From an uncultured Pseudomonadales bacterium (lineage in GTDB: Bacteria > Patescibacteriota > Microgenomatia > UBA1400 > UBA12108): DNA of 64,000 bases. Below are positions 5,015 to 59,178 of this stretch, piece after piece. The DNA lies in contig CAZDRB010000001.1 in the NCBI GenBank assembly GCA_964507925.1, forward strand, positions 15,072 to 79,071. The letters run 5' to 3'. Below the pieces are notes generated by a model, which did not search any database, was not told where the DNA came from, and saw only the letters and a program-made list of their open reading frames with translations. Position 1 is the first letter of the stretch; the number at the start of each line of letters is the position of its first letter. The position numbers and the translations under genes are program-made.

Positions 5015-5497
5015 TTATTTAATTTTGTTTAGTTTACCATGTTTTTTTATCAGGTCAAATCCCTCTTCGACTGCAGGGAGCGTGAGTGGGAGGCAATCGA
5101 GCTCTTTGGCCTCGTCGAGAGTGAACCAGCCGCACTCAGATGTTTCCCAATCTGGGTCTTGTGTTAGATCTGGCACTTGATCTCCGATCTCGACTAGATA
5201 AGTAATCAAGATAACCTGGGTGTCCATTTTTTCGTCTGATTCGTCGGCGTACCAAATACTAGTTTTGACAATCGGATAAGGATGGATAATGCTCGCCTTG
5301 ACTCGCAGCTCCTCCCACATCTCACGCCTAACTCCCTCTTCCATCGTCTCGCCAAAGTCAAGCGCTCCTCCTGCAATTTGCCATTTGTTGTGCCAAGCAG
5401 GATTGTCAGGTGAGTGCCTTTTGGTGAGTAAGACTTTTTGGCCATCAGTTGAGACTGGCAGACCTAGGGCCGCGACGATGATTTTTTGTTTGCTCAT
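5015..5497 (-). CDS. NUDIX hydrolase
   Basis: Nudix box GGALDFGETMEEGVRREMWEELRV. Start taken at MSKQKIIVAALG (ATG at 5497), giving an ATGA overlap with the upstream HD gene stop; the track ORF extends further 5'. Confidence 0.8.
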   Translation of the reverse strand: MSKQKIIVAALGLPVSTDGQKVLLTKRHSPDNPAWHNKWQIAGGALDFGETMEEGVRREMWEELRVKASIIHPYPIVKTSIWYADESDEKMDTQVILITYLVEIGDQVPDLTQDPDWETSECGWFTLDEAKELDCLPLTLPAVEEGFDLIKKHGKLNKIK

Positions 5498-19866: not shown

Positions 19867-20052
19867 GTTGTATGACAATAAAACAAGCAAGAAAAATACT
19901 TGGAAAAATGGCAGACGGGATAGCTGATGAGGTTATCCAAGCCGACATTGAAGTGGCTGAGTTTTTTACATCCATTTTTTTCGATCACATACGTTACGGT
20001 GGACACGATGGGGTGGTGCATCCACAACAAACGTGCCATAATTAGGCACTAT

Positions 20053-21582
20053 ATGACACGTAGAGCTGTTATTTACATACGGGTATCCGATCAGTCACAA
20101 ATCGAAAACAATAGCCTAGAAAGCCAGCTGAAGACTTGTGACGCATTTGCGAAGCAGAGTGGTTACGAAGTCATCAAGATATATCGTGAAGAGGGTAAAT
20201 CTGCCAAGGAGGTTTTTACAAGAGAGAAACTCAAAGAGTTAATGTCGTTTTGTTTGGTAAAAGCAAATCACATAGATGCGATGATCGTATACAAATACGA
20301 TCGATTCAGTCGAAACTCTGCCGATGGCCAAGCAGCGATTGCACTATTGGCTAAGGCTGGTGTGGATGTGATATCTGCCACCGAGGGAGCAGAAGATAAT
20401 CCAAGTGGAAGAGCCATGCGTACGATTTTACTAGCTTTAGCACAGCTAGATAACGAGATAAAGGGCGAGCGAGTACATGACAATATGCAGGCCGTCTTTC
20501 GAAAAGGGTTCTGGCCATTTAAATGCCCAGTCGGATACAAGAGATTTTCAAGAAACAAAGAGGAAAACATGGGGATTCCTCCTTTAGTTGATAAGCACTT
20601 GGGACCCATTGTGACAGAGATGTTCAAGAACGCCGCAAGCGGTATCTACTCTAAGGAACAACTAGCCAGGATGATGAACAGCCAAGGTTTTGGTGACCAT
20701 TATCGTGCCAAATCTACACACAAGATTGTCGATAGCATTTTACGCAAGACTTTTTACTATGGTGAGATGTATGGACCAAAGTGGAAGGAACGGGTATGGG
20801 GTAAGCATGAGCCATTAACCGATAAAGAAACTTGGGAGTTAGCATACAACAGAGTCATATTAAAAAAGAAAAACTATGTCTACCAGGACGAAGCAAAATA
20901 TCCCCTTAAAGGGCATCTACGTTGTAGTGAGTGTGGTGCGCCGCTCACCACGTCACCATCTACTGGACGTAGTAAAAAGTACTACTACTATGAGTGTCGC
21001 AGCAAGTCATGCAAAAAGATCAGGACGCTTGCTGACGACGCGCATAAGCAGTTTGAGTTGATATTAGAACAAATCAAGCCTTCCCCTAGAGTACTACGCC
21101 TTTTCGATAGCACTGTCTTTTCTACATGGGATAAGGAAATCGCTCGCTCCGAAGCGTCACTCGAAAAAGCAGATCAACACCTTTTGACGCTCAAAAATGA
21201 CATTACAAATATACGTAAGTCTGTAGATAATGGACTATTAACGATGGAGGAGGGAAAAGAACAGATTGAGATAGTTAGGCAAAACATCGCCGTTGCTGAG
21301 ATTGAGAAGGCAGATATTAAGTGTAGTCATTATGATAAGGAAGTTGTGAGAAACTTTACTCGCTCATTTTTAGAAAATATTGATGGACTATGGCGAGACA
21401 TGAACTTATCAAAGAAGCAGGCTTTTCTCGCTCTCATTTTTCCAAACGGCATCTTATGTGATAACAACCGAAAAATCCGAACCGATCAATTGTCCCCATC
21501 CTTCGAGCTAATTGTGGCTCTTAGTGAGCAAAAAGGTGAAAATGTGACCCCACAGGGAATCGAACCCTGGTTAGCAGAATGA
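20053..21582 (+). CDS. Large serine recombinase (resolvase-type catalytic domain + recombinase domain + zinc ribbon)
   Basis: AVIYIRVSDQSQ (catalytic Ser region), YKYDRFSRN, recombinase domain, CSECGAPL ... YECRSKSC zinc ribbon, C-terminal coiled coil. Start at MTRRAVIYIRVSD (ATG 20053). The last 38 nt overlap tRNA-Glu on the opposite strand. Confidence 0.85.
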   Translation: MTRRAVIYIRVSDQSQIENNSLESQLKTCDAFAKQSGYEVIKIYREEGKSAKEVFTREKLKELMSFCLVKANHIDAMIVYKYDRFSRNSADGQAAIALLAKAGVDVISATEGAEDNPSGRAMRTILLALAQLDNEIKGERVHDNMQAVFRKGFWPFKCPVGYKRFSRNKEENMGIPPLVDKHLGPIVTEMFKNAASGIYSKEQLARMMNSQGFGDHYRAKSTHKIVDSILRKTFYYGEMYGPKWKERVWGKHEPLTDKETWELAYNRVILKKKNYVYQDEAKYPLKGHLRCSECGAPLTTSPSTGRSKKYYYYECRSKSCKKIRTLADDAHKQFELILEQIKPSPRVLRLFDSTVFSTWDKEIARSEASLEKADQHLLTLKNDITNIRKSVDNGLLTMEEGKEQIEIVRQNIAVAEIEKADIKCSHYDKEVVRNFTRSFLENIDGLWRDMNLSKKQAFLALIFPNGILCDNNRKIRTDQLSPSFELIVALSEQKGENVTPQGIEPWLAE

Positions 21583-21616
21583 GAATCTGCTGTCCTAGCC
21601 ACTAGACGATGGGGCC
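21545..21616 (-). tRNA. tRNA-Glu (anticodon CUC)
   Basis: Hand-folded: acceptor GGCCCCA/TGGGGTC, D-arm GTCT-AGTGGCTAG-GGAC, anticodon stem GCAGA/TCTGC with loop TTCTCAT (U33, CUC, A37), T-arm CAGGG-TTCGATT-CCCTG, discriminator A. No encoded CCA. Confidence 0.85.
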
Positions 21617-46129: not shown

Positions 46130-46372
46130 AATAAAAAGGCGTTACAGTTTGGTTTCCCGCCAAACGAGCTGAGTACGATGAGTACTACGGAAGTCAACCG
46201 TAAAATACGACAAAGCGTGTCGGCAACGGAGCGCAGATAATAAGCAATAGCTTACATACTGACTCCACCGCAAGGTGGTTTTTTTGTAAGCTAACGGAAG
46301 CAAGGTGGTACCACGAGCTAACCTCGTCCTTGTCTATCAGATAATTCTGGTGGGCGAAGACGAGGTTTTTTT
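46130..46372 (+). promoter_or_regulatory. T-box riboswitch leader (predicted tRNA-Pro-responsive) with canonical antiterminator/terminator
   Basis: T-box sequence AAGGUGGUACCACGAG (46302-46317). Helix A1 CAAGG/CCUUG, 7-nt bulge UGGUACC, helix A2 ACGAG/CUCGU. Competing terminator CCUCGUC (46322-28) / GACGAGG (46359-65) plus U7. Upstream hairpin CCACC-GCAA-GGUGG (stem III-like). Operon encodes proline synthesis and ProRS. Confidence 0.65.
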
Positions 46373-46414: not shown

Positions 46415-47473
46415 ATGAAAATTATGAATGTCGAGTCACTAACCGAGTTAGTGCAGAAACACGGATTTAATAACTACCTACTGGGTCTGATGAAGGCGCT
46501 CAAACACGACTTTGGGAAATGGCAATCATTTACCAAAATGCCCAGACCTGCCATGCATGTTCCAGGCGGCGTATTGGAGCTTATGCCTATTTGTGATAAT
46601 GAAAATTATTACACATTTAAATATGTTAACTGCCATCCTAATAATCCCTTTATAGGTCAGCAGACTGTGGTTGCCACTGGTCAACTATCGAGAATTGATA
46701 CTGGCTATCCTCTGATGTTTAGCGAAATGACTGTGCTCACTGCCCTTCGAACAGCCGCTACTGCATCTCTTGCAACTGACTTAATGGCTCGCAAGAACGC
46801 ACGGGTTTTGGCTCTAATTGGAAATGGTGCTCAAAGCGAATTTCAAGTTAAGGGCCAACAGTTGGTGCGTGATATTAGCGAAGTTCGATTCTTTGATATT
46901 GATTCAAAGGCAATGGATAAATTTGAAAAAAATATGTCCACCTCCAGCCTTAAATTAACGAGATGCAATAGCGCCAAAGAAGCAACTCTGGGAGCGGATA
47001 TTATAACTGTGTGCACTGCCTGTAAGGCAAATGTCGATGTCATTAAGAATGATTGGGTTCAGGAAGGAGTGCATATTAACGCGCTCGGAGGAGACACGAT
47101 CGGCAAAACTGAGTTAGAACTTGGTATTTTGTCTCGAAGTCGCATAGTAGTTGAATACTTTGACCAATCGTACGTTGAGGGAGAAATTCAAAGGCTTGAC
47201 CATGATGAGGCGAAAAACCTAGTTTACGCTGAGATGCACGAGTTAGTTACTGGGCTTAAACGTGGACGCGATAATGATGGTGAAATAACTCTCTTTGACT
47301 CTGTTGGGATTGCGTTAGAAGATTACTCAGCACTAAGGTTTACCTATGATCTGGCAGAGAAATACAATCTGGGTGAGGAACGAAACCTTACGCCAGTGTT
47401 ATTAGATCCTAAGAATCTAATTGCGGTGCTAGATGATAAAACAACATATAATTTAATGGATAAGGAGACATAA
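46415..47473 (+). CDS. Ornithine cyclodeaminase (mu-crystallin family)
   Basis: 352 aa aligning along its length with P. putida OCD: FKYVNCHPNN, LTALRTAATASLA, ALIGNGAQSEFQ, NALGGDTIGKTEL, FDSVGIALEDY. Confidence 0.85.
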   Translation: MKIMNVESLTELVQKHGFNNYLLGLMKALKHDFGKWQSFTKMPRPAMHVPGGVLELMPICDNENYYTFKYVNCHPNNPFIGQQTVVATGQLSRIDTGYPLMFSEMTVLTALRTAATASLATDLMARKNARVLALIGNGAQSEFQVKGQQLVRDISEVRFFDIDSKAMDKFEKNMSTSSLKLTRCNSAKEATLGADIITVCTACKANVDVIKNDWVQEGVHINALGGDTIGKTELELGILSRSRIVVEYFDQSYVEGEIQRLDHDEAKNLVYAEMHELVTGLKRGRDNDGEITLFDSVGIALEDYSALRFTYDLAEKYNLGEERNLTPVLLDPKNLIAVLDDKTTYNLMDKET

Positions 47474-47474
47474 T

Positions 47475-47810
47475 ATGACAATATACGATGATTTTGTAAA
47501 GCTCGATATACGCGTGGGCAAGATAGTGGCGCTCGAGGACTTCCCAGAAGCAAAGAAGCCTGCATATAAACTGAAAATAGATTTTGGCGCTGAGATCGGC
47601 ACTAAAGTATCTAGTGCTCAGCTGGTCAAGCATTACACCAAAGAAGAGCTTGTGGGCAAAATGGTCATGGGAGTGGTTAACTTTCCTCCCCGCCAGATCG
47701 GACCATTCCAGTCAGAAGTACTCACGCTCGGAGTGCCCGACGAGACTCACGAGTGTATACTGGTAGTGCCAGATAAAAATGAAGCAATAATCGGTGGAAA
47801 ATTATTTTAA
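47475..47810 (+). CDS. tRNA-binding domain protein (CsaA/Trbp111-like)
   Basis: DFVKLDIRVGKIVALEDFPEAKKPAYKLKIDFG ... LVVPD is the EMAP/tRNA-binding OB fold. 111 aa, 1 nt after the ocd stop. Confidence 0.75.
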   Translation: MTIYDDFVKLDIRVGKIVALEDFPEAKKPAYKLKIDFGAEIGTKVSSAQLVKHYTKEELVGKMVMGVVNFPPRQIGPFQSEVLTLGVPDETHECILVVPDKNEAIIGGKLF

Positions 47811-47821
47811 AAAGGAGAATT

Positions 47822-49069
47822 ATGAAATACTCGAAAATGTTCGTCAAAACACTTAAGTCTGCTCCGTCTGGAGCAGATACTGCCAATCACCGCTTGCTCG
47901 TGCAGGCAGGATTTGTCAGACAAGTTATGGCTGGGGTATATACCTATCTCCCCTTGGGATTGCGGGTGCTCAACAAAATTGCAAACATTGTGCGTGAGGA
48001 AATGGACAAGATTGGAGGACAAGAGGTACTTATGCCCCTCCTCCACCCTGCTGATCTGTGGAAGCAAACAGGTGGGTGGGATATTGACGTGCTTTTTAAG
48101 ATTAAGAGCCGGACGGATAGGGACTATGCGCTTGCGCAAAGTAACGAAGAAACGGTCACCCCACTTGCCAAAGAGTGGATTCACTCGGCCAAAGATATGC
48201 CTCTCTCGATCTACCATATCAATTGGAAGTTCCGCGACGAATTACGGAGCAAATCAGGAATTTTGCGAGGCCGAGAGTTTTACATGAAAGACATGTATAG
48301 CTTTCATGCAACGCAAGAAGATTTTGACCTCAACTACAAAAAAGTTAAGGAGGCCTACCTCACGATCTTTAAACGACTGGGGCTTGTAGCCAAGGCGACC
48401 GAGGCCTCGGGAGGAGCATTCTCCGAAAAGATTAGTTATGAGTTTGAGGTTTTGACTCCTGCCGGCGAGGCGCCTGTATTGTACTGCGATAAGTGTGATT
48501 ACTGCGTCAATGTAGACGACATTAAGACTTATTCCGAGGGGGATGATTGCCCACTATGTAAAGACGATAAGCTCAAGAGCGCGATGGCCTCGGAGGTCGG
48601 CAATGTGTTTGATCTTGGACAAAAATATTCCAAGGCCTTTGATCTAAGTATTGTGGGTCAAGACGGAAAAAAAGAATATCCGATCATGGGCTGTTATGGA
48701 ATCGGAATTAGTCGGACCATGGGCGTGATCGTCGAAAAGTTTAACGATGAAAAGGGCATTATCTGGCCTGCCTCGGTTGCGCCATATACGGTACACCTAG
48801 TGAGCGTCAATACCAACGACAAGTCAGTGGTTAAGCGAGCTGAGGAAGTATATCAAGCTCTTATCAAGGCAGGTATCGAAGTTTTGTACGACGACCGAGA
48901 GTCAGTTGGCGCGGGGCAGAAGCTAGCGGAAGCGGACATGATCGGATGTCCGATCCGAGCTCTCGTGTCGACCAAATCAGGAGAACAGGTCGAGCTAAAA
49001 TATCGAAATAAAACCGAGTCCCAGCTGGTAAGCTTGGACGAGCTGATAGAGACTGCAAAGACTATTTGA
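47822..49069 (+). CDS. proS: Prolyl-tRNA synthetase (bacterial type lacking the editing insertion)
   Basis: N-terminal region (HRLLVQAGFVRQVMAGVYTYLPLG) and WKFRDELRSKSGILRGREFYMKDMYSFH closely parallel E. coli ProRS motifs 1-2. C-terminal zinc-like CDKCDYC and anticodon-binding domain. 415 aa. Confidence 0.9.
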   Translation: MKYSKMFVKTLKSAPSGADTANHRLLVQAGFVRQVMAGVYTYLPLGLRVLNKIANIVREEMDKIGGQEVLMPLLHPADLWKQTGGWDIDVLFKIKSRTDRDYALAQSNEETVTPLAKEWIHSAKDMPLSIYHINWKFRDELRSKSGILRGREFYMKDMYSFHATQEDFDLNYKKVKEAYLTIFKRLGLVAKATEASGGAFSEKISYEFEVLTPAGEAPVLYCDKCDYCVNVDDIKTYSEGDDCPLCKDDKLKSAMASEVGNVFDLGQKYSKAFDLSIVGQDGKKEYPIMGCYGIGISRTMGVIVEKFNDEKGIIWPASVAPYTVHLVSVNTNDKSVVKRAEEVYQALIKAGIEVLYDDRESVGAGQKLAEADMIGCPIRALVSTKSGEQVELKYRNKTESQLVSLDELIETAKTI

Positions 49070-50771
49070 CAGTCACTGACTTGGCAAGGTTGCGCGGCAT
49101 GTCGGGATCAAGATTTTTGGCAAGGGCGAGATAGTATCCCAATAGTTGAAACGGAATCACGTTCAAGATAGGTGAGATAATCTCGTCGTCTTCTACCTTG
49201 ATCCAGTCGTCAAAGACCTCTTCTTTTTTTGGTCCTATGCCTATAATCCAGGCGCCTCTTGCCTTGAGCTCCATCGCTCCTGAGAGAACATTGTCACGCT
49301 CCTCCCCCTCGTCGACTATTACCAAGCAAGGCGTTCCTTTGTCGATGAGCGCAATCACTCCGTGTTTGAGCTCTCCACCGGCAAATCCCTCAGCATGGAG
49401 ATAGGAGATCTCCTTCATTTTGAGAGCACCTTCGAGTGCGACTCCATAATTTTGTCCCCTGCCGATCACATATAGGTCAGAGTGTTTGGCAAGTTTGTCT
49501 GCCAAAGCCCAGAGCTTAAGTTCGAGCTCGGGCGTAAAAAACTCCTTGACTTCATTTACTGCCCTACTCACATCAATACGCTTTCCCAAGATTAGGTAAG
49601 CTGAGACTAGCATGTTGGTGAATGCCTTGGATGACACAACCGCTTTCTCGATACCCGCAAGGAGCGATACCCAGACATCTACCTCTCTAGAGAGAGTAGA
49701 TCCCGGAATGTTCACCAGGCCTATTATCTTGGCGCCTCGTGCCTTGGCATCTCGCATAGCCTGAATTGTGTCGATCGTTTCTCCTGACTGGGAGGCAAGT
49801 AGCACCGCAGAGTTTTTATCGACTAAGTGTACGAAGGAGTTAAACTCGCTAGCCGACACCGGAATGATTTGGATGTTGCTGTGCCGAGCAAAAAGATAGC
49901 TTGCAACAAGCATGGAGTAGTAGGCGGTCCCGCATCCGATTGCATAGACCACTTGAGCCTCGGTGAGCAGTTTTCTGGCCTTGATGATCTCGCGATCATC
50001 TGAGCTTATGCGCCTACCAATCGCCTCTACCTGATCATGTATTTCCTTGATAAAGTAGTGAGGATACTCGCCTAGCTCAACTATCTCTCGATCCATCTTG
50101 ATCTGGCTAAAAATGTGGCGTGAAGTTAGTTTGCCATTTTTGATTATGGCGATATCCCCGTCTTTGAGCACTGCTATATTGTCAGTACAAGCAAGGAGTG
50201 ACGGGATATCTGAGCTAATGTAGAGCTCGCCTCCTTTGCCCTGTCCGACGACAAGGGGAGAGCCATTTTTGCAGGCGACAAGATCGCCATTTTTGCTTAT
50301 CACAACTATTGTGTTGAACCCCTTGAGTTGGGCAAAACTTGCCTTGACAGCAGAGGCAAAGGCGAGCTTTTTTTGAGCCTCTTCAACAAGATGGGTGAAG
50401 ATCTCGGTATCTGTTTCTGAGACAAATTTGTGACCCTGATCAAGTAGTTTATTCTTGAGTTCGAGATAGTTTTCGATAATCCCGTTGTGGACTACCGAGA
50501 TATTTCCAGTGCAATCCAGGTGGGGATGGGCATTTTGATCAGTGACCCCGCCGTGAGTTGCCCAACGGGTATGACCAAGGGCTATTTTTGATGATCCAAG
50601 GGTTAACTGACTAGAGCCAATTTTCCCGACATGCTTTTCTAGCGCAAGTCCCCCGGATCCGGCTGCTACGATCCCCCATGAATCGTAACCTCTATACTCT
50701 AGTGACTTGAGGCCCTCAAAAACAATTTTTGTAGCATTGCCACTCCCAACGTAACCAAAAATTCCGCACAT
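49062..50771 (-). CDS. glmS: Glutamine--fructose-6-phosphate aminotransferase (GlcN6P synthase)
   Basis: MCGIFGYVGS (N-terminal nucleophile Cys2), two SIS domains, C-terminal SVTVK-like tail. 569 aa. Confidence 0.9.
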   Translation of the reverse strand: MCGIFGYVGSGNATKIVFEGLKSLEYRGYDSWGIVAAGSGGLALEKHVGKIGSSQLTLGSSKIALGHTRWATHGGVTDQNAHPHLDCTGNISVVHNGIIENYLELKNKLLDQGHKFVSETDTEIFTHLVEEAQKKLAFASAVKASFAQLKGFNTIVVISKNGDLVACKNGSPLVVGQGKGGELYISSDIPSLLACTDNIAVLKDGDIAIIKNGKLTSRHIFSQIKMDREIVELGEYPHYFIKEIHDQVEAIGRRISSDDREIIKARKLLTEAQVVYAIGCGTAYYSMLVASYLFARHSNIQIIPVSASEFNSFVHLVDKNSAVLLASQSGETIDTIQAMRDAKARGAKIIGLVNIPGSTLSREVDVWVSLLAGIEKAVVSSKAFTNMLVSAYLILGKRIDVSRAVNEVKEFFTPELELKLWALADKLAKHSDLYVIGRGQNYGVALEGALKMKEISYLHAEGFAGGELKHGVIALIDKGTPCLVIVDEGEERDNVLSGAMELKARGAWIIGIGPKKEEVFDDWIKVEDDEIISPILNVIPFQLLGYYLALAKNLDPDMPRNLAKSVTVK

Positions 50772-50799
50772 ATTTGCTCCTTCGGAGAATTTTTAATTC

Positions 50800-51045
50800 T
50801 CAATTTACAATTTACAAATGAAAGATAGTATTGGAGCAAGTCTTTGTTGATTTGAACTTGTCCTTTTTAGGTAGATACTAGCTACCTGAGGGTTTCCGCT
50901 GATTACTTCGACTCACTGCGTTCGCTCAGTACAAGCCTTCTTCGCAATGCTTCGAGTTCGATTTCCCGACGTATTCGTCGGGACCCTCCTCCTCGTACCC
51001 CCCGTCGCCAAAGGCTATGGTGGGGCCAGACGCCCGTAAAGTTGT
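50800..51045 (-). ncRNA. Candidate glmS ribozyme/riboswitch in the glmS 5' UTR
   Basis: On the minus strand the UTR contains GUACGAGGAGGAGG (rc of 50986-50997), cf. consensus GACGAGGAGGAGG. Then AAUCGAA, CUGAGCGAACGCAG (cf. CUGAGUGUGCAG) and GUAA segments in the consensus order, with an inserted perfect hairpin CCCGACG-AAUA-CGUCGGG. P1 region is degenerate. Confidence 0.45.
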
Positions 51046-51049
51046 CCTT

Positions 51050-52477
51050 TCAAGCTGAGTTTAGCACATTTTCAAAGCGTGCGAGTACCTTGTCTCTGCC
51101 AATCACCTCGATCGTCTCAAATAGTGGAGGGGTTGCTGTCTTGCCGGTCACGGCAACGCGGAGCATCATAAAGTATTGTCCAGGCTTCCATTCATTTGAT
51201 TCAGATAGAGATCTAATTTTTTGCTCAATATTTTCATGAGTCCAGTTTACTTGCTCAATAGTTGATAGCTCATGGTTTGTAGCTGATAGTTGTGCTTTAA
51301 CTTCGTCGACGCTCGATTTTTTGGTGAGCATGCTCAGGTCTACTGAGATGTCTCGATAGAAAAAATCAGATAACTCCTCAAAGTCTTTGAGCGTGACAAG
51401 GCGCTCTTTGATAAGAGGCAAAATACGCCCCACCATGTCCTCTGGGCAATCAGCCGGAATAAATGGTTCTAGGCGGGAGGCAAGATCGGCATCGGATAGT
51501 TCGCGGATATAGACACCGTTGAGCCAGTTAAGCTTGTCCAGATCATATACTGGGGCAGTTAGTGTCACGCGCTCGAGAGAAAAATGTTCTATAAATTCGC
51601 CCAATGCGAATACTTCTTTTTTGTCGGGATGCGACCATCCCATAAGTGCCAGAAAATTAAGAATAGCTTCTGGTAAGTAACCCTTGTCGCGGTGGGAGAG
51701 GATCGAGACGTCATTTTTCCTTTTGCTCATTTTGCTATGGTCTTTGTTTCTAATAATCGGGAGGTGGGCAAAAACTGGTAGATCCCAACCAAATGCTTGG
51801 TAGATCAAGATATGCTTGGGAGAGCTCGAGAGCCATTCCTCTCCACGAATGACGTGCGTAATACCCATAAGATGATCGTCTACGACGACAGCAAGATGAT
51901 AGGTTGGATAGCCGTCGGTTTTTAAGAGTACCTGATCGTCAATGCCTAAGTTTTGAAATTCAACGTCACCTCTAATTACGTCGTGACAAATGGTAGTTCC
52001 TGACTCTGGAACTTTAAGCCTGATAACATATGGCTCAGATTTACTTCGTTTTTCTGACTCTGATCGATCAAGATTGCGGCAATACTTATCATATCGAGGG
52101 AGCTGTTTTTGAGCTTGCTGGTCTGCGCGGACTTGCTCAAGTCGCTCTCTGGTACAAAAGCAGTAGTAGGCTCGATCATTTTTGACTAAGCTAAGTGCGT
52201 GCTCTTTGTAGATATTAAGCCTCTCTGATTGAGTATAGGGGGCGTGAGGACCGCCGACATTTGGACCTTCGTCGTTTGAGAGTCCCAGCCAAGAGAGGGC
52301 GTCAAAAATAACCTCAACCGCTCCTTCGACCTGACGCTCTCGATCAGTGTCTTCTATGCGGACAAGAAACTGTCCTTTGCCCTGCCTCGCGATAGCCAAG
52401 TTTCTCATAGCGATATAGGCAGTTCCGAGGTGGGCGATACCGGTAGGAGAAGGGGCAATTCGGGTGCGAATAGTCAT
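51050..52477 (-). CDS. gltX: Glutamyl-tRNA synthetase
   Basis: RIAPSPTGIAHLGTA (HIGH motif) and KMSKRKN (KMSKS). 475 aa. Confidence 0.9.
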   Translation of the reverse strand: MTIRTRIAPSPTGIAHLGTAYIAMRNLAIARQGKGQFLVRIEDTDRERQVEGAVEVIFDALSWLGLSNDEGPNVGGPHAPYTQSERLNIYKEHALSLVKNDRAYYCFCTRERLEQVRADQQAQKQLPRYDKYCRNLDRSESEKRSKSEPYVIRLKVPESGTTICHDVIRGDVEFQNLGIDDQVLLKTDGYPTYHLAVVVDDHLMGITHVIRGEEWLSSSPKHILIYQAFGWDLPVFAHLPIIRNKDHSKMSKRKNDVSILSHRDKGYLPEAILNFLALMGWSHPDKKEVFALGEFIEHFSLERVTLTAPVYDLDKLNWLNGVYIRELSDADLASRLEPFIPADCPEDMVGRILPLIKERLVTLKDFEELSDFFYRDISVDLSMLTKKSSVDEVKAQLSATNHELSTIEQVNWTHENIEQKIRSLSESNEWKPGQYFMMLRVAVTGKTATPPLFETIEVIGRDKVLARFENVLNSA

Positions 52478-52500: not shown

Positions 52501-53550
52501 ATGGCTAGTCTTGGCGAAACAGCGGTGATTGCAAGAAAGGTGATCAAGTACGGTGCAATTACCCTTGCAGTCCTGATCATTGGTCGAGTCATTCTTGGAG
52601 CAATCACTACCTACTGGAAAAAAATTAACCCTCCTCCCCCACCTCCTCCTGACGTCCTTTTTGGCAAGTTGCCACGCATAGCTTTTCCGCAAAAAGATCA
52701 GCTGAGTTTGACCTATTCGCTCGAAACTCCAACAGGAGGCTTGCCATCCAAGCTCCCTGATCAATTTAAAGTCTTTTTTATGCCGATCAAAAAAGCCAAT
52801 CTCTTGGCTTATGACTTTGCCAAGGCGGTTGCAAATCGTCTGGATTTTATCCAGGATCCAGTCAAGCTCTCAGAAACTGATTACCGCTGGAACTCGCTAA
52901 GTCCGATCCCTTCGTCACTCACTATAAATATTATCACTGGCGCCTTTGTCCTAGACAAAAGATGGCAAGATGATCCAAGTTATCGAACGCCAAACAATTA
53001 TTTTGACGAAACCCAGGCAGTTGACCGAATGTACAACCTGCTCTCACGAGTCGAGCTCTTGCCAGAAGACATCAGGGACGGATCGTATACTATTCAATAC
53101 CTTAGAGCAGAGGGAGAGCAGATAGTGCCCGCGGTATCTCTCTCACAAGCGCATTTTGTGCAGGTCAATTTGTATCGTTCACCAGTTGATAATGTAGAAG
53201 TAGTCAACCCGAGAACTGACCAAGGTTTGATCACTGGGATCCTGGCCTTGCAAAGAGAAGATCCGCGACAGTTTGTGAGTTTGAACTACAATTATTTTCC
53301 GGTTAATTTGGAGCGCTTTGCAAGCTATCCCTTGATTGGGGTTGCGGAAGCGTGGCAGAGACTTCAACGGGGAGAAGGATTTGTTGCTGGGATCAAGCCG
53401 GGAGCACAGGAGGTGGTAATACGCGATATAGCTATTAAGTACTATGACCCTGATACTGCCCAGCAGTTTTTGCAACCAGTATATGTATTTTCGGGAGATC
53501 CAGATTTTGTAGCTTATGTTCCTGCTGTTTCGGATCAGTGGTTGGAGTAG
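52501..53550 (+). CDS. Hypothetical membrane-anchored protein with PPPPPPP linker (349 aa)
   Basis: N-terminal TM (ITLAVLIIGRVILGAITTYW), a 7-proline run, then a large extracytoplasmic domain with no known motif. Confidence 0.5.
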   Translation: MASLGETAVIARKVIKYGAITLAVLIIGRVILGAITTYWKKINPPPPPPPDVLFGKLPRIAFPQKDQLSLTYSLETPTGGLPSKLPDQFKVFFMPIKKANLLAYDFAKAVANRLDFIQDPVKLSETDYRWNSLSPIPSSLTINIITGAFVLDKRWQDDPSYRTPNNYFDETQAVDRMYNLLSRVELLPEDIRDGSYTIQYLRAEGEQIVPAVSLSQAHFVQVNLYRSPVDNVEVVNPRTDQGLITGILALQREDPRQFVSLNYNYFPVNLERFASYPLIGVAEAWQRLQRGEGFVAGIKPGAQEVVIRDIAIKYYDPDTAQQFLQPVYVFSGDPDFVAYVPAVSDQWLE

Positions 53551-58892: not shown

Positions 58893-59178
58893 GTGCCTTG
58901 GGTAGGCTAGATGATCGCTCCGACGTAAAGTCGGAGAGGAAAGTCCAGACAGCAGTGTGCAGGGTGTCTCGACGTAAAGTCGGGAACGGGTAACCGCTAG
59001 TTAGAGCAACAGAGACTACGACTCACCCGCAAGGGAAGAGAGTGAAAAGGGCAATCCTCCCCGCTGCAACCGACGAATAGGCCGACAAAGACTGACGCAC
59101 ACCAGAGGCCTGAAGCTTGCGGGCATAGATAAATGATCATCTGCAAAACAGAATCTGGCTTATGCCTACCCAAGGCGC
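58893..59178 (+). ncRNA. rnpB: RNase P RNA (bacterial type, reduced ~285 nt)
   Basis: P1 closes with a perfect 13-bp helix: GCCTTGGGTAGGC (58895-) / GCCTACCCAAGGC (59164-59176). P4 strands GAGGAAAGTCCAGAC (cf. GAGGAAAGUCCGGGC) and ACAGAATCTGGCTTATG (cf. ACAGAACCCGGCUUA). Confidence 0.8.

Follow-up and report, generated by a model that had tools for sequence, protein, structure and literature searches.

A probable glmS ribozyme of a Microgenomates subtype with a remodelled periphery in the gltX-glmS leader

The window considered here is a 64,000-nucleotide stretch of contig CAZDRB010000001.1, and the feature of interest is the 278 nt leader of glmS (50772-51049), read on the minus strand and sandwiched between gltX (51050-52477, also minus strand) and glmS. 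The GlmS protein comprises 569 amino acids and starts MCGI. A first-pass annotation, made from the letters alone, had proposed that the leader carries a divergent RNA resembling the glmS ribozyme. Comparative evidence from covariation, from a covariance model built on relatives and from a graded series of homologues indicates that this was largely right. The element belongs to the 5′ untranslated region (UTR) of glmS and has the same orientation, with 55 nt between its 3′ end and the start codon at 50771, and the 3′ end of gltX is 15 nt 5′ of the predicted cleavage site. The leader holds no credible open reading frame (ORF), and a scan for consensus promoters and terminators gave nothing on the correct strand and no terminator-like site. 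The placement 5′ of glmS is the same in all relatives, and most of those for which the flanks were read have the same arrangement, gltX-leader-glmS-hisS, the leader measuring 227-349 nt. Coordinates are collected in Table 1.

Standard database searches miss the element because of two extra hairpins in the core, here termed HpA and HpB, and a shortened peripheral arm. A scan of the whole window against Rfam at gathering thresholds returned only a short RNase P RNA and two tRNAs. A targeted scan of 451 nt (50700-51150) aligned the full length of RF00234, the glmS ribozyme model (positions 1-167), to 50824-51045 on the minus strand with 21.7 bits and E=0.0044; the gathering score is 37 bits, and rescaling the E-value arithmetically to the whole window gives about 0.6. 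Taken alone, such a match is suggestive but weak. The alignment carries a 75 nt insertion, corresponding to the HpB region, and this insertion together with the absence of P4.1 accounts for the sub-threshold score. The RF00234 search recommended as a check by the first-pass annotation therefore gave a match, though only below threshold and only in the targeted scan. Dismissing the proposal for lack of a significant match, as also suggested there, would have led to a wrong rejection, the element being below the gathering score yet homologous. Two simple statistics can be added. The pattern GCGTCTGG-N15-45-ACGAGGAGGAGGG, representing the 5′ core, occurs once in the window and in none of 100 shuffles, and the minimum-free-energy fold of the leader has z=-2.67 against shuffled sequences.

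The nearest GlmS in a species-representative genome collection is only 46% identical to that of the window. A tight clade of GlmS proteins of 569-570 amino acids, with 58-67% identity to the window protein, was found in a large protein database; contigs were taken for eleven of these and gave nine distinct leaders. Metagenome contigs were also scanned for exact copies of the invariant 18-mer TCAGCGGAAACCCTCAGG; of the 24 loci found, eight carry the RNA and the others are chance occurrences. The eight represent seven distinct sequences, as L111 duplicates L084. The window clade, as used below, consists of 13 leaders: that of the window, the nine found through GlmS relatives and three found through the shared 18-mer. 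A wider Microgenomates-type set of 18 leaders includes in addition the outgroups L119, L103, L104, L108 and L009. The 18-mer is invariant in the window clade and also present in L103, L104 and L108, which pass the Rfam threshold.

An alignment of ten leaders displays long invariant blocks (ACGGGCGUCUGG; UACGAGGAGGAGGG; AAUCGRAC; AUCAGCGGAAACCCUCAGG; ACAAAG) with intervening segments whose sequence and length change while self-complementarity is kept. When the proposed helices are placed on this alignment 97.5% of cells are paired; sliding the 3′ partners by one to three columns lowers this to 36.6-49.0%. Two-sided changes occur at 18 pairs, against 2-6 in the slid controls, and the observed covariation score was reached by none of 500 shuffles. 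RNAalifold, with no structure supplied, recovers P2, HpA, HpB, P3 and P4. The pseudoknot helix P3.1 retains complementarity in the combinations AGUAU/AUACU, UGUAU/AUACA, AGUAC/GUACU, UGUGU/ACACA and ACUAC/GUAGU, and GUGU/ACAC, UGGC/GCCA and UUAC/GUAA were read by eye from further sequences, giving eight different pairs. This covariation is strong evidence for the predicted P3.1 pseudoknot, which is specific to the glmS ribozyme class. A shuffle test of P3.1 on individual sequences gave no significance because the helices are short, and the evidence for P3.1 is thus the covariation across sequences. Two alternative pairings were considered and put aside. A nested, Rfam-style helix termed P2a (G143-C201, R144-U200) was dropped, since these nucleotides belong to P2.1 and P2.2 according to PMC7125110. 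RNAalifold also offered a pairing of GGAG, within ACGAGGAGG, with CUCC at the 3′ end of P4; the canonical family pairs CUCC within P4, and the clade is invariant here so that the two pairings are not distinguishable.

Links to accepted family members come from two directions. The covariance model R1 describes the core domain and was trained on 17 relatives, the window being left out. It has a sole match in the 64 kb window, at 50866-51037 on the minus strand, scoring 107 bits (E=1.1e-27). Applied to 80 glmS loci of named genomes it matched canonical ribozymes weakly, in Firmicutes and Chloroflexi, and all matches save one weak one (11.3 bits) are at most 420 nt upstream of glmS. Since R1 detects canonical ribozymes and RF00234 detects leaders of the present type, recognition works both ways. 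RF00234 scores form a graded series over one architecture. Within the window clade they are 17.5 bits for L084, 20.2 for L082, 21.7 for the window element, 28.3 for L102 and 35.8 for L088, a range of 17-36 bits. The outgroups, with the same extra hairpins and core, cover 37-70 bits: L009, from Candidatus Gottesmanbacteria RBG_16_52_11, scores 36.8, L119 44.9, L108 54.8, L103 59.3 and L104 69.5 bits. The last four, all above 37, share the two extra hairpins and the AAUCGGAC...AUCAGCGGAAACCCUCAGG core with the window. Canonical controls from Chloroflexi (L003, 98.9 bits) and Firmicutes (L059, 107.2 bits) score around 100 bits. L119 and L009 were identified by GlmS homology rather than by RNA sequence, and are therefore free of selection bias.

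Table 1. Features of the glmS leader and its borders, in order of window position.
Feature	Position	Strand	Basis
glmS coding sequence, presumed regulated gene	49062..50771	-	Pfam GATase_6/7 and two SIS domains
A/U-rich spacer	50772..50826	-	read from sequence; unconserved in relatives save for the Shine-Dalgarno
Shine-Dalgarno AAGGAG, within spacer	50777-50782	-	read from sequence
Whole predicted glmS ribozyme, G(-1) to P3.1 3′ strand (208 nt)	50827..51034	-	RF00234 match; R1 on core 50866-51037; alignments
P3.1 3′ strand AUACU, pseudoknot with loop L3	50827..50831	-	eight complementary sequence pairs
Short P4, GGACAAGU / ACUUGCUCC	50833..50863	-	14 nt loop with both IL4 purine strands, CAAA and ACAAAG
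P3 hairpin, AGGUAG / CUACCU	50869..50887	-	two P3 pairs covary; RNAalifold
P3.1 5′ strand AGUAU, in P3 loop	50875-50879	-	pseudoknot partner AUACU
P2 3′ strand CCCUC	50888..50892	-	pairs with GAGGG
CAGCGGAAA; P2.2 3′ strand 50897-50901, then linker GAAA	50893..50901	-	part of invariant 18-mer TCAGCGGAAACCCTCAGG
HpB, extra hairpin in loop between P2.1 and P2.2 3′ strands	50908..50955	-	two-sided changes at 4/4 outer pairs
AAUCGAAC; U50961-C50960-G50959 = P2.1 3′ strand and part of cofactor pocket	50956..50963	-	AUCG invariant; role from PMC7125110
HpA, extra hairpin between P2 5′ strand and AUCG element (CCCGACG-AAUA-CGUCGGG)	50964..50983	-	covariation
P2 5′ strand GAGGG	50984..50988	-	pairs with CCCUC 50888-50892; RNAalifold
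ACGAGGAG; C50995-G50994-A50993 = P2.1 5′ strand	50989..50996	-	invariant in 18/18 leaders of this type
P1 hairpin	50997..51026	-	18-73 nt among relatives; C-G to U-A at two base pairs
P2.2 5′ strand, C2 G3 U4 C5 U6 G7	51027..51032	-	mapped via P2.2 pairs in PMC7125110
Predicted scissile bond, G(-1) 51034 / G1 51033	51033..51034	-	cmscan: G|GCGUC aligned to consensus A|GCGCC
TGCTAAACT, possible extended -10 element inside gltX 3′ end	51058..51066	-	TGCTAAnCT kept upstream of ribozyme in most aligned relatives

The cleavage-site region, which the first-pass annotation could not recognise, is identifiable as G|GCGUCUG (51034|51033-51027). It falls in the block ACGGGCGUCUGG, invariant in the 13 leaders, and the sequence G|GCG (51034|51033-51031) provides the N(-1)-G1-C2-G3 context of the family; the exact cut position is that predicted from alignment with canonical members. 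The 5′ strand of P2.2 can form five pairs and one bulge with 50901-50897, namely C2-G, G3-C, U4.G, U6-A and G7-C with C5 bulged, so that the bulge is shifted. P2.2 positions 4, 5, 6 and 53 co-vary among L119, L104, L103, L108, L009 and L045, the last from a member of the Ktedonobacteraceae (Chloroflexi). Both strands of P2.1, CGA (50995-50993) and UCG (50961-50959), are present and invariant in the 18 leaders; the pairing itself is a prediction from the family because invariant strands give no covariation. The general base of the glmS ribozyme is located in P2.1 (PMC8495972), and G50994 would be its equivalent. The P2 helix GAGGG/CCCUC changes its outer pair from G-C to A-U in L009, and covariation supports both P3 and the P3.1 pseudoknot.

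Two hairpins are inserted at solvent-facing junctions of this core, HpA between P2 and the P2.1 3′ strand and HpB in the loop between P2.1 and P2.2. HpA, which the first-pass annotation had noted as an insertion, is genuine but is one of two. It shows two-sided changes at six of seven pairs with 100% of cells paired, occurs in 18/18 leaders, and largely replaces the UUUA linker that connects P2 to the P2.1 3′ strand. HpB measures 48 nt in the window and in L094, and most relatives have one of about 18-24 nt. Sequence and length of both hairpins vary freely and no loop is conserved. With regard to the four strings that had been assigned to core motifs, all are present on the minus strand, together with the HpA string at 50982-50965. 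The assignments of GUACGAGGAGGAGG (50998-50985) to the core of J1/2, P2.1 and P2, and of AAUCGAA (50963-50957) to the AUCGA element carrying the P2.1 3′ strand, stand. Those of CUGAGCGAACGCAG (50929-50916) and GUAA (50906-50903) do not. The former was taken for P3 but sits inside HpB, the real P3 being AGGUAG...CUACCU at 50887-50869, and the latter, taken for the GUAAGG segment, is in the linker just 3′ of HpB.

All five outgroups have P4.1 and its GNRA L4 loop, and none of the 13 members of the window clade does; in the clade P4 and the IL4 purines are kept, and a loop of 12-14 nt joins the two IL4 strands directly in place of P4.1. Every one of the 18 leaders retains G1-C2-G3, ACGAGGA with the general-base G, AUCG, GCGG and the P2 helix. 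The residues that form the active site and cofactor pocket according to PMC7125110 (C2-G56, C28-G29-A30 and U43-C44-G45) are likewise invariant in 18/18, and all catalytic and cofactor-pocket nucleotides that can be mapped from published work are present in the window element. The adenines of IL4 identified as critical in PMC11602151 are retained in the window clade.

Large optional insertions are distributed among the relatives in a mosaic pattern. L084, L094 and L111 have an extension of P1 of about 55 nt, whilst HpB is longer by about 30 nt, including tandem AG/AG internal loops, in the window and L094. The mosaic suggests that peripheral modules have been gained and lost independently.

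Comparisons with canonical glmS ribozymes (RF00234; Bacillus subtilis, B. anthracis, Thermoanaerobacter tengcongensis) place these features in context. The site in the glmS 5′ UTR, G1-C2-G3 following the cut, P1, ACGAGGA with the general-base G, P2, AUCG as the P2.1 3′ strand, GCGG as the P2.2 3′ strand, P3 with the P3.1 pseudoknot, and P4 with its AAA and ACAAAG purines are all shared, and the order and topology of elements are identical. In the T. tengcongensis core, for which a mutational map is available, P2.2 comprises C2-G56, G3-C55, C4-G54, C5-G53 and G7-C52 with A6 bulged, P2.1 pairs C28-G29-A30 with U43-C44-G45, and residues 47-50 form the loop between the P2.1 and P2.2 3′ strands (PMC7125110). 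The differences are several. HpA and HpB turn the P2 region of the window element into a multi-helix junction, and no insertions at either site occur in the canonical ribozymes sampled. Position -1 is G rather than A. In P2.2 the canonical C4-G and C5-G pairs with bulged A6 are replaced by U4.G and U6-A with bulged C5. G26, which in the canonical core forms a base triple on the G7-C52 pair (PMC7125110), is missing, there being one nucleotide fewer between P1 and ACGAGG (...GGGGU|ACGAGG), and the linker GGAUG is GGAAA. Without P4.1 and the GNRA loop the contact of L4 with P1 cannot be made.

Some of these differences, HpA, HpB and GGAAA for GGAUG, are common to the whole Microgenomates type, whereas the loss of P4.1 and the GNRA loop, U4 with the U6-A register, and the lack of G26 are confined to the window clade (13/13). 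The Rfam-passing metagenomic members of the type (L119, L104, L103 and L108) and L009 have identical insertion points for HpA and HpB, an identical AAUCGGAC and a nearly identical GCGGAAACCCU core. L119 also has the same gltX-glmS neighbourhood as the window, and both L119 and L108 have G(-1) as in the window clade. Unlike that clade, all five keep P4.1 with GNRA-type loops (GCAA, GUAA or GAAA-type). G26 is kept in L119, L104 and L103 but is U in L108 and L009, and P2.2 of L119 is fully canonical (GCGCCAG / UCGGCGG). The Ktedonobacteraceae leader L045 has a UCAGCGG P2.2 3′ strand with U at position 6, as in the window, but lacks HpA and HpB and has a normal P4/P4.1 with a GCAA loop. The shifted-bulge P2.2 is therefore not unique to bacteria of the candidate phyla radiation (CPR), and it matches alternative bulge registers deduced from double mutants and mutant libraries (PMC7125110).

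On this basis the element is very probably a functional glmS ribozyme, of a Microgenomates (CPR) subtype, exerting negative feedback on GlmS synthesis. Homology to the family, the secondary structure with its P3.1 pseudoknot and conservation of the core nucleotides follow from the comparisons above; cleavage, dependence on glucosamine-6-phosphate (GlcN6P) and the decay step are assigned by analogy with canonical members. Transcription would start at a promoter that overlaps the gltX end, or would read through from that gene, and the RNA would fold into the canonical double-pseudoknot core of P2.2, P2.1 and P2, with P1 at its flank and with the P3/P3.1 pseudoknot and the purine-rich P4 loop, docking on P2.1, as braces. 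As GlcN6P accumulates it would bind a preformed pocket and serve as catalytic cofactor and general acid, with G50994 as general base activating the 2′-OH of G51034 and the chain being cut between 51034 and 51033. The resulting glmS mRNA with a 5′-OH end would then be degraded, lowering GlmS levels; in Bacillus the cleaved mRNA is degraded by RNase J1. Since gltX ends 15 nt 5′ of the cut, any read-through transcript would also be severed from glmS by cleavage.

A number of points weigh against this interpretation. The window element is 15 bits under the RF00234 gathering score, and RF00234 went unreported in whole-window scans both at that score and at E<=2. P2, P2.1 and P2.2 are invariant in the window clade and covariation is therefore silent on them there. 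The L4 tetraloop contact with P1, important in B. subtilis k-seq (PMC11602151), is lost, and several positions highly conserved in canonical ribozymes deviate: position -1 is G, C4 is U, the linker is GGAAA, and G26 of the base triple is absent in the window clade and replaced by U in L108 and L009. RNase J was not found among ten large window ORFs that were scanned.

Is the element still a ligand-dependent ribozyme? It might descend from a glmS ribozyme and no longer depend on GlcN6P, acting as a constitutive processing site that splits gltX and glmS transcripts, or as a non-cleaving leader that affects mRNA stability or translation. The changes at normally conserved positions (G(-1), U4, no G26, GGAAA for GGAUG) and the loss of the P4.1/L4-P1 clamp would fit such a descendant. 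A few active-site mutations are able to abolish the GlcN6P requirement (PMC11602151), and read-through transcripts are plausible given how close the gltX end is to the cut. However, G(-1) and GGAAA also occur in the Rfam-passing L119 and L108, a single upstream nucleotide of any identity suffices (PMC8495972), and the IL4 purine strands, which buttress P2.1 and the ligand pocket in B. subtilis k-seq (PMC11602151), are retained. Selection on the pocket of this strength is hard to explain without use of the ligand, and because the pocket residues are strictly conserved we judge a ligand-independent or non-cleaving descendant unlikely. A cis-regulatory RNA of separate origin (a protein-binding leader, say, or an attenuator), sharing no more than a few purine-rich strings with the glmS ribozyme, would be in keeping with the sub-threshold score and with the two false motif matches noted above. 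It is very hard to reconcile with homologues of one architecture whose scores grade continuously from 17.5 up to 69.5 bits, with mutual detection between the clade model and canonical ribozymes, with the presence of all family helices including P3.1 in the correct order, or with the lack of any terminator-like site. As to chance resemblance in a non-functional intergenic spacer, the E-value of 0.0044 is valid for 451 nt only and the whole-window scan gave no match, but conservation of the 208 nt element, compensatory changes included, across 13 independent contigs of metagenomic or genomic origin, and an R1 match with E=1.1e-27, leave this reading with next to no credibility. Both the unrelated RNA and the chance match are effectively excluded.

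The ribozyme periphery is reported to be dispensable for catalysis but stabilising (PMC11602151, PMC8495972). We entertain, as a rather unlikely proposition, that the window clade is a naturally minimised glmS ribozyme in which the rebuilt periphery and the remodelled substrate strand (G(-1), a shifted P2.2 bulge and no G26) jointly alter its properties. The consequences, if so, could be an altered affinity or specificity for the cofactor, different requirements for Mg2+ or folding, or largely constitutive cleavage that splits gltX and glmS transcripts.

The phylogenetic reach of the element deserves comment. The window Lon protease is 75-78% identical to proteins from Candidatus Woesebacteria, the Microgenomates group and Candidatus Collierbacteria, all of the Patescibacteria group, and the 278 nt RNase P RNA and dense gene content, rich in aminoacyl-tRNA synthetases, are at least compatible with a Microgenomates placement. 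No RF00234 match was obtained upstream of glmS in five other Patescibacteria loci (Magasanikbacteria, Uhrbacteria, Moraniibacteria and two unclassified bacteria), and the element consequently looks confined, within the CPR sampled, to Microgenomates-like lineages. Outside the CPR, the relatives with a glmS ribozyme in this analysis are Firmicutes and Chloroflexi only, a distribution that would fit a shared Gram-positive-type heritage. We found no description of a glmS ribozyme in CPR or Patescibacteria in the searchable literature, which did not cover the natural-variant catalogue of McCown 2011. The phylogenetic novelty suggested in the first-pass annotation must nonetheless be softened. Relatives of Microgenomates type pass the RF00234 threshold, and so the lineage is probably covered already by automatic Rfam matches. 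The kind of element is known; the Microgenomates architecture, and especially the sub-threshold form that lacks P4.1, are structural variants of it.

These variants are of interest in several respects. For annotation, the Rfam threshold misses a whole CPR clade of glmS ribozymes which a subtype-specific model recovers cleanly. In the progression from canonical ribozymes to the Microgenomates type with two additional hairpins, and on to the window clade, where P4.1 and L4 are lost as well, nature provides a test of the role of the periphery, together with examples of P2.2 registers known from mutant libraries. A metabolite-sensing ribozyme at the first step of amino-sugar synthesis for the cell wall appears to be retained in very small genomes. 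We also note that in L119, L120 and L121 an ORF of 73-82 amino acids (about 1140-1430) has been called exactly over the glmS ribozyme, an annotation artefact that arises because the RNA was not recognised.

Sequences on either side of the element have features of their own. The relatives have in common, in the upstream columns of the alignment, a promoter-like TTGCTA-N17-TGCTAAnCT. The window has TGCTAAACT, inside the end of gltX, which was not called by the consensus promoter scan and is a possible extended -10 promoter element. In relatives a Shine-Dalgarno-like AAGGAGG with no ORF behind it occurs 10-15 nt upstream of the cleavage site, the window counterpart being AAAGGAC (region 51044-51066, minus strand, together with TGCTAAACT); speculatively, this might be a 5′ stabiliser that cleavage removes. 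Downstream, the spacer contains a perfect hairpin, GAGAAU / AUUCUC (50785-50801, minus strand), ending 2 nt before AAGGAG, and a short tandem AAAUUGU repeat, the hairpin and repeat region covering 50785-50815 on the minus strand. Both are seen in the window and not in relatives. Adjoining gltX on the plus strand (52501-53550) is a conserved protein of unknown function, 349 amino acids long and with no Pfam match; nearly all relatives have it at the same length and position.

Other RNA features were encountered. A match to the T-box leader RF00230 at 46133-46334 (plus strand) scores 34.8 bits against a gathering score of 93, with E=3.7e-05 in 5 kb and 4.7e-04 over the whole window. It is upstream of an operon consisting of an ORF (46415-47473), a gene with a tRNA-binding domain (47475-47810) and hisS (47822-49069), and the relative L096 has an RF00230 match of 40.3 bits at the equivalent place. 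This is probably a divergent T-box, also below the Rfam threshold. The bacterial class A RNase P RNA (58899-59176, plus strand) scores 104.5 bits against a threshold of 100; its 278 nt compare with 367 model positions, and large deletions in peripheral helices identify it as a reduced form. A DUF3800-IX RNA (RF02968, 62.1 bits), unrelated to the glmS ribozyme, occurs at 5016-5080 on the minus strand of the Candidatus Uhrbacteria locus L058. Lastly, the window encodes a large serine recombinase of 551 amino acids with Resolvase, Recombinase and Zn-ribbon domains (19927-21616), the 3′ end of which overlaps a tRNA gene on the opposite strand (21545-21616), and this overlap may mark a mobile element integrated at the tRNA.

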